This document shows positions 17,825-18,284 of a stretch of 64,000 nt of DNA, one piece after another. The stretch's first letter is position 1. The number at the start of each line of letters is the position of its first letter. The notes beneath the pieces were generated by a model. That model was not told the origin of the DNA. It made no database searches and was given only the letters and a program-made list of their open reading frames with translations. A program made the translations under genes and the position numbers. This DNA comes from Escherichia coli (lineage in GTDB: Bacteria > Pseudomonadota > Gammaproteobacteria > Enterobacterales > Enterobacteriaceae): assembly GCF_016903815.1 (NCBI RefSeq), contig NZ_CP069973.1; one strand, given 5' to 3'.

Positions 17825-18050
17825 CCGTGACGAAACGGCTCAAAGGCGAGGTATAAATTGAGTTTTTTTGATGAGTTGAAAAACTCTCTGGAAGAGGCTG
17901 TTGAGATTAGAAAGAACCTGCACGGGTGACCCGCTACGAAATTGCAGATGCTAAGGCTATTCGTGAGCAACTTCATACTCCAACCGACCAGTTGCGTAGC
18001 CAGAATGCAATCAAATCTGACAGTCCGCTTCGGCGCGCGCTTTGGTGTAT

Positions 18051-18236
18051 TTACCGGAGTAAATCAGCGTGCCATGGAAAATTATGCGCAGCGCTTCTGC
18101 TGATTTGCGTACCTTCGCTGATGATAAGTCCTGCACTGGCGCGCTGCGCGTAATAGTCCGCCATCATGTCAGTCGTAACGTCACCCGCACGGGAACGTGT
18201 CATCGGTGGCATTACAATACGGTTTTTTAATGGCAA
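18051..18236 (-). pseudogene. truncated N-terminal fragment (about 60 codons) of an Old-Yellow-Enzyme family NADH:flavin oxidoreductase (NemA-like)
   Basis: NRIVMPPMTRSRA...DMMADYYAQRASAGLIISEGTQIS matches the conserved OYE N-terminus, then the frame ends. Confidence 0.6.
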
Positions 18237-18284
18237 CGCATTCAGCGCATATTTAGCAAATTACGTAATGGGTCCCTTGCGCGG

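Follow-up and report, generated by a model that had tools for sequence, protein, structure and literature searches.

Phage P2 carries a hotspot for cargo genes with inverted repeats at its borders, which was reportedly described by Nilsson, Karlsson and Haggard-Ljungquist in Mol Biol Evol in 2004. In the GenBank entries AJ512676, AJ512681 and AJ512685, these left and right inverted repeats surround the Z/fun cargo between genes G and FI of P2-like prophages. The Z/fun cargo hotspot is also treated in a section of a review (PMC9122126) which cites Nilsson et al. 2004. Besides this hotspot, three further kinds of system are relevant for the locus described here. HigBA-type modules are toxin-antitoxin pairs in which the toxin gene lies directly upstream of the antitoxin gene. 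Members of the NemA/OYE family (PF00724, NF007899) are FMN oxidoreductases with a full-length reading frame of about 365 aa which includes the central catalytic part of the barrel. Integrase-mobilised islands are recognised by an integrase or recombinase gene and by att-type direct repeats at both ends.

The window, a stretch of 64,000 nucleotides of Escherichia coli DNA, has the gene order serB, radA, nadR, followed by minus-strand genes for DUF1471, SRPBCC, SDR and aldo/keto reductase proteins, a plus-strand LysR gene, IS1397 and ettA. With the end of nadR at 17824 and that of the DUF1471 gene at 18285, the debris interval 17825-18284 is exactly the 460-bp gap between these two genes. Window bases 17700-18400 (701 bases tested) are 100% identical to E. 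coli strain 7/2 (NZ_CP023820.1). We consider it very likely that the interval is a layered scar without a working gene, composed of a toxin-gene stub, the front part of nadS, a P2-type repeat and two OYE pieces; that function is absent is what we infer. The debris is ordinary gene decay bordering a 4-kb island, and the feature is already known, with both pseudogenes present in the RefSeq annotation. In NZ_CP023820.1, PGAP has placed CRT46_RS27460 (‘NadS family protein, frameshifted; incomplete’) at the nadS remnant and CRT46_RS27100, a partial ‘hypothetical protein’ with a missing C-terminus that is called ‘alkene reductase’ in sister genomes, at the OYE fragment. Coordinates and calls for the nadS and OYE pseudogenes are the same in this annotation and in the present analysis, and sister genomes have both pseudogene calls as well; what the annotation omits is the 3' end of nadS beyond the island, the stub of the toxin gene, the C-terminal OYE piece, the lost OYE start and the P2-type repeat.

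The nadS gene, a small HTH gene found downstream of nadR in most E. coli, is present in the window as two separated remnants on the plus strand. The 5' remnant (17858..17972, codons 1-42 of 94) is supported by alignments, the NCBIfam model NF041265 and the PGAP pseudogene call, and the 3' remnant (22012..22041, from codon 81) by alignment to intact nadS. Compared with the intact gene (L004), the window aligns base for base from the nadR stop to 17972 save for a 10-bp deletion, and over the 148 nt that align with intact nadS and its upstream spacer there are five mismatches and one 10-nt gap. The deletion follows position 17909 and leads to a frame break and an early stop, which leaves a 23-codon ORF (17858..17929) with a TTG start and the translation MSFFDELKNSLEEAVEIRKNLHG, preceded by GAGG at 17848-17851. 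The homology ends at 17972 and resumes at 22012, past the LysR stop, from where it runs into the REP element before ettA. The 3' remnant, about the last 10-14 codons, has deletions of 2 bp and 11 bp, and about nt 126-241 of nadS (~116 bp, the HTH-coding part) are absent altogether from the window. Homology and the position directly downstream of nadR make the remnant a member of NadS, with no complete ORF of ~94 aa and no HTH region (about residues 34-80) left in the window. In a profile search, intact NadS (94 aa) reached 182.6 bits (E=1.2e-54) on NF041265 and gave weaker matches to HTH models of MqsA/HipB-type antitoxins. The KE21 type, one of the cargo-bearing variants described below, shares the nadS truncation point without the 10-bp deletion, so this deletion arose later. 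Because the two ends of nadS flank positions 17973-22011, the island lies inside nadS, and by the evidence of these alignments the HTH fragment is a chromosomal gene split by the island and not island debris.

Between nadR and nadS, a stub of 29 nt at 17828..17856 on the plus strand is what is left of the 3' end of a RelE/ParE-type toxin gene, stop codon included. This stub could be aligned to the toxin gene of strain 82.0312 (L003 3217-3549) at its 3' end, with the other ~400 bp absent from the window, and it contains the GAGG that serves as the nadS ribosome-binding site. The 29 nt that precede nadS in toxin-free genomes, the window among them, correspond to the 3' end of the toxin gene. The toxin itself (110 aa) matches the Pfam RelE family (PF06296, E=5.9e-10), and its gene lies between nadR and nadS, toxin first, in 673 of 5426 complete E. 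coli genomes. This toxin-first order and the overlapping signals are shared with HigBA-type modules, as is the resemblance of NadS to their antitoxins through the weak MqsA/HipB HTH matches. The difference is that the putative toxin-antitoxin pair is known here from sequence alone, and that both partners have been destroyed in the window, where 29 nt are left of the gene that would lie directly upstream of the antitoxin gene. From the 29-nt stub alone it can be argued that the pair would be ancestral, with the toxin gene deleted afterwards and not inserted at a later time. Full-length nadS (94 aa) occurs in 731 of 5426 complete E. coli genomes (13%), and the 673 genomes with the toxin against 731 with full-length nadS, compared as totals, would fit retention of nadS by the toxin. 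The majority type of nadS, that of K-12 (L095 1500-1667), encodes 55 aa made up of about 38 NadS codons and REP/BIME-derived sequence. To judge from these gene remnants, nadS is a decaying orphan antitoxin and not a stable core gene.

The second pseudogene consists of two pieces of an OYE gene on the minus strand, which meet at 18098|18099. The N-terminal piece (18099..18266, codons 1-58) was identified by alignment to E69 and by the NemA model, and the C-terminal piece (18025..18098, about codons 288-311) is identical to E69 L007 11666-11739 in 73 of 74 nt. The minus-strand ORF at 18051..18236 encodes 61 aa, and its frame is open upstream to a TAA at 18261-18263; it matches positions 11-66 of the NemA/OYE model NF007899 (E=5.5e-16), and near-identical E. 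coli OYE fragments carry Pfam PF00724. The 5' part of the window OYE has 92% DNA identity over 208 nt to an intact 365-codon gene (E=2e-86). Against E69, positions 18300-18099 are 92% identical and span the DUF1471-OYE spacer in addition to codons 1-58, and positions 18098-18025 are 99% identical. Several lesions can be mapped: the start codon has changed from ATG to ACG at 18264-18266, codon 2 has changed from TTA to TAA at 18261-18263, and the N piece has a 6-bp in-frame deletion which is followed by a frame-shifting internal deletion of 686 bp at the junction of the two pieces. The 61-codon frame therefore starts in the N piece, enters the C piece out of frame and ends there at 18051. In all seven E. 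coli copies examined the start is lost, the TAA is present and the 686-bp junction is identical; the 6-bp deletion is found in only some of them.

The OYE remnant occurs in 482 of the 5426 complete E. coli genomes, and in none of the complete E. coli genomes is an intact OYE gene found, with at most 27% of the gene in any of them. When the 69-aa OYE fragment was used as a protein query, all hits were short fragments and no intact orthologue was among them. Intact genes were found through a locus search with the neighbouring SRPBCC protein: directly after the DUF1471 gene, E69 (L007) and Yokenella regensburgei (L010) encode OYE proteins of 365/366 aa. Residues 2-365 of the E69 protein align with positions 6-365 of the 365 positions of the NemA model (E=1.3e-118), at 396.4 bits against a curated cut-off of 403. 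The window shares with the NemA/OYE family the homology to the FMN-oxidoreductase fold over the N-terminal 58 codons and about codons 288-311. It lacks the start, the full-length ORF of ~365 aa and the barrel's central catalytic part. With codons 59-287 and all after ~311 missing, which is about 75% of the gene, most of the fold is gone, presumably including the catalytic centre. Between the N piece and six of seven E. coli loci there are 4-8 mismatches per 147 nt, and none between it and the ST2747 type; the excess divergence of the N piece over the neighbouring genes is small in absolute numbers. In E. whittamii (L008 10803-11258), OYE has been cut to a 151-aa in-frame fusion with deletion endpoints unlike those of E. 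coli, so the gene was lost independently there.

The earlier note on this DNA had taken the TTG-initiated plus-strand frame behind GAGG for the broken start of an HTH/antitoxin-like gene and the minus-strand frame for the N-terminus of an OYE, and had regarded both as decayed genes. These readings agree with the results, as the plus-strand frame is the start of nadS and the lesions of both genes could be mapped against intact nadS and the OYE of E69. The intact versions that it proposed to seek exist for NadS as well as for OYE. Four features go beyond what it had described: another piece of OYE, the lost OYE start, the toxin stub and the P2-type repeat relic.

The last of the junction deletions has left a scar at 18028..18032, identified by comparison with the ST2747 type and strain 48, which sits at a microhomology of 4-5 bp (CGAA/CGAAG). 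The deletion amounts to 1,581 bp against the ST2747 type, with flanks 99% identical to the window on both sides, and to 1,009 bp against strain 48. About 450 genomes have the window-type junction; 458 places cover at least 80% of the query, a number that may include some genomes of the KE21 type since nearby pieces are joined. Three types of E. coli carry other genes between the OYE and nadS remnants. Strain 48 (one genome) has a DUF2846 gene for a lipoprotein-like product (L086 3814-4733), the ST2747 type (seven records) has a ModE-like regulator and a TauE/SafE exporter (L089 2572-4065), and the KE21 type (about 21 genomes) has a GNAT gene (L090 2558-3208). These cargo segments are unrelated to each other and occupy the same repeat-bounded slot. 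All three variants have an identical right border and retain 56-71 more bases of the OYE C piece, to about codon 330. The GNAT and DUF2846 cargo proteins have no close relatives in the phage collection searched.

The outer border of this former cargo slot is preserved in the window at 17973..18032 (minus strand) as a relic of the right inverted repeat of the P2 ‘Z-region’, as found by alignment to P2-EC30. Positions 17974-18031 align with the P2-EC30 right repeat (AJ512676) over 58 nt at ~72% identity and a score of 46, a score reached by none of 200 shuffles (mean 15.1, sd 2.5), and by sequence similarity the relic belongs to the P2 Z-region repeats. The relic also lines up with P2 and the cargo-bearing E. 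coli variants in a multiple alignment. The right border shared by the cargo variants opens with AACTTCCGCTTCTCGCTCGAAGCGGACTGTCAGATTTGAT, an imperfect palindrome, and the left border closes with AAGCGGAAGTTG, its inverted complement. A search of phage records matched the border motif to phage P2 and to GenBank ‘proviral Z-region’ entries of P2-like prophages. In the cargo-bearing strains, the left border matches the inner hairpin of the P2-EC48 left repeat and meets OYE within native gene sequence, GTCCGTTTATTGCCAA, which itself resembles the repeat. Inverted repeats enclosing cargo are seen in the ST2747 type and strain 48 (AAGCGGAAGTT ... AACTTCCGCTT) and more weakly in the KE21 type; in the window, the left repeat and the cargo have been deleted. 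In E69, the right repeat recurs as a copy of 31-33 nt, about 455 bp past the 3' side of the intact OYE gene, and the DNA downstream of the E69 OYE has no match in E. coli. Apparent copies of the P2 repeat at the island ends of E. whittamii were not significant. Positions 17973-18030 were also considered as a third, diverged OYE piece, with GLSDLIAF resembling the OYE motif GWADLIGF; this was rejected because 1.0-1.6 kb of other DNA intervenes in strain 48 and the ST2747 type and because of the match to the P2 repeat.

The E. coli slot is like the P2 Z/fun hotspot in that different cargo is found at identical borders (strain 48, ST2747 and KE21 types) and in that these borders match P2 sequence, namely the left repeat at its inner end and the right repeat over 34-88 nt. 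It differs in its chromosomal location, as the flanks are nadR/nadS' and the OYE/DUF1471 island instead of G and FI of a P2-like prophage, with no phage genes annotated at the window or the cargo-variant loci, and in its left repeat, of which ~28 nt are fused to OYE. Three unrelated cargoes between identical, hairpin-containing borders, and a left border fused to OYE at the repeat-like sequence GTCCG-N4-TGCCA, would be consistent with a chromosomal slot of the P2 Z/fun type that is recombinationally active now or was so recently, a reading that we regard as doubtful. If it were true, it would imply an uncharacterised site-specific exchange of cassettes outside prophages which truncated OYE via a pseudo-site. 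As a separate observation, hairpin copies of the P2 Z-region type are also present in non-P2 prophages (K-12 Qin, L092 2501-2527, between flxA and ydfW; L093 4001-4033; L094 3001-3027). One such copy lies just past the 3' end of a tyrosine recombinase gene, with an overlap of about 4 nt, and the hairpin motif is at least partly matched in 2,139 genomes.

The island as a whole comprises 4,039 bp at 17973..22011, as defined by the break in nadS homology, and contains, from its ORFs and annotation, the P2-type repeat relic, the OYE remnant and the genes for DUF1471, SRPBCC, SDR, aldo/keto reductase and LysR proteins. Neither the annotation nor the ORFs of 17973-22011 show a recombinase, and the island has neither the integrase nor the att-type direct repeats at both ends of an integrase-mobilised island. 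A 19-nt direct repeat near both island ends (family D10) was considered as attL/attR and rejected; its right-end copy matches the P2 repeats no better than shuffles (6 of 200). IS1397 (22074..23505, plus strand, by annotation, with TGGC on both sides) interrupts the REP element that separates the nadS 3' stub from ettA. IS1397 is known to prefer REP/BIME sequences, which this insertion fits; genomes with the island and without IS1397 exist, and in strain 23CRST026 (L004) this spacer also contains an IS1397, which is oriented the other way.

The SRPBCC locus search found the same six-gene cluster (LysR, aldo/keto reductase, SDR, SRPBCC, DUF1471, OYE) in other Enterobacterales. Within Escherichia, the cluster is found with 97-99% amino-acid identity at three chromosomal sites: inside nadS in E. 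coli, between glyS and cspA in E. whittamii (L008 7100-11260) and immediately after yhiN in E69 (L007 7064-12390). No recombinase gene was seen in the island segment at these three sites, with E69 and E. whittamii viewed less systematically than E. coli. The only NadS hit at the E. whittamii locus (31% identical) is a neighbouring 96-aa HTH ORF which was read as yiaG. The pitA-yhiN region of E69 (CP089930.1, titled Escherichia coli) is at most 93.8% identical to any of the 5,426 complete E. coli genomes, and the strain probably belongs to a cryptic clade of Escherichia and not to E. coli proper. A contig of 2,144 bp from a ‘Collinsella sp.’ MAG (JAIJJM010000574.1, L006) encodes products 94-100% identical to those of the nadR/nadS'/OYE'/DUF1471/SRPBCC/SDR region of E. 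coli, and for this reason it is almost certainly mis-binned E. coli DNA.

Other explanations of the debris have to be weighed against these results. The earlier note proposed that the island had once been larger and had been trimmed at this edge, and if the HTH fragment is taken as part of the arriving island, both fragments would be its debris. The loss of DNA from the edge is borne out, as rare E. coli retain 0.65-1.6 kb of cargo at the position of the scar, which means that the nadR-side edge has been trimmed. The OYE gene was however not simply cut back from the edge: the start loss, the codon-2 stop, the 686-bp loss and the loss of the 3' end at a P2-type repeat would all precede the final junction deletion. 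For the HTH fragment the proposal fails: the nadS 5' part is contiguous with nadR, the 33-bp spacer between them is the same as in island-free genomes, the nadS 3' end is found beyond the island, towards ettA, and the E69 and E. whittamii loci that were fetched have no nadS homology at their OYE-side end. An identity of ~90-94% between the window and island-free genomes over the nadR-end/nadS' stretch would leave room for a flank of donor origin acquired by recombination, and the reading of both fragments as island debris is on balance very unlikely. That the similarities are due to chance and the sequences were never genes here is refuted by 92-99% DNA identity to intact genes and by significant HMM E-values, and no point in the homology and HMM results speaks for it; its probability is negligible.

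It is also improbable that the fragments have been kept for a function, be it as a 23-aa NadS peptide, as a 61-aa OYE ORF or as regulatory signals for nadR or DUF1471. The sole caveat to the non-functional reading concerns the 23-codon nadS' ORF, whose translation signals are preserved: translation of the peptide is possible since the native ribosome-binding site is retained just after nadR and since the truncated 55-aa NadS of K-12 was reported as expressed in a transposon-reporter study (PMC12350097). The junction form is moreover common to about 450 genomes. Against this stand the absence of the HTH region from the nadS remnant and a frame break caused by a 10-bp deletion that the KE21 type does not have. 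The OYE ORF has no ATG, begins after a TAA and crosses an out-of-frame deletion junction, and within E. coli the alleles of this fragment are as little as 79% identical at the amino-acid level, with lengths between 50 and 67 aa. Scans of the debris for regulatory signals stayed at chance level, with no terminator-like site on the plus strand and one weak promoter-like hit, which does not exceed the yield of shuffled sequences, and the Rfam scan found no RNA family. Layered decay of nadS and OYE around the island junction accordingly remains the preferred reading.

Homologies, breakpoints, alternative states and their frequencies can be taken directly from the alignments and genome counts given above; the order of events that we infer was assembled from eight loci. 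Ancestrally, a HigBA-like pair of a RelE/ParE-type toxin gene and nadS would have occupied the space between nadR and ettA, and deletion of the toxin gene would have left 29 nt. The ~4-kb redox/detoxification island, from LysR to OYE, would then have inserted inside the orphan nadS, parting codons 1-42 from the last ~14 codons with loss of the HTH-coding middle. In the common ancestor of the sampled E. coli copies, OYE may have lost its start, gained the codon-2 stop and lost 686 bp, and its 3' end may have been replaced at codon ~330 by a slot with P2 Z-region-type inverted repeats and strain-varying cargo. In the lineage of the window, a deletion at microhomologies of 4-5 bp would have taken out the left repeat together with the cargo and some of the right repeat, thereby joining the OYE C piece to the right-repeat relic. 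The small deletions, 10 bp in nadS' and 6 bp in OYE', would have come later.

The debris by itself matters little, as island junctions normally look like this. Around it, the analysis describes an unmarked redox island of 4 kb that is found at three distinct sites on Escherichia chromosomes, and P2 Z/fun-type repeats which mark a small variable slot outside any prophage. The K-12 “nadS” that has lately been reported as expressed is itself a truncated form. These by-products are descriptive and open no new question; they aid annotation and the interpretation of the pan-genome.
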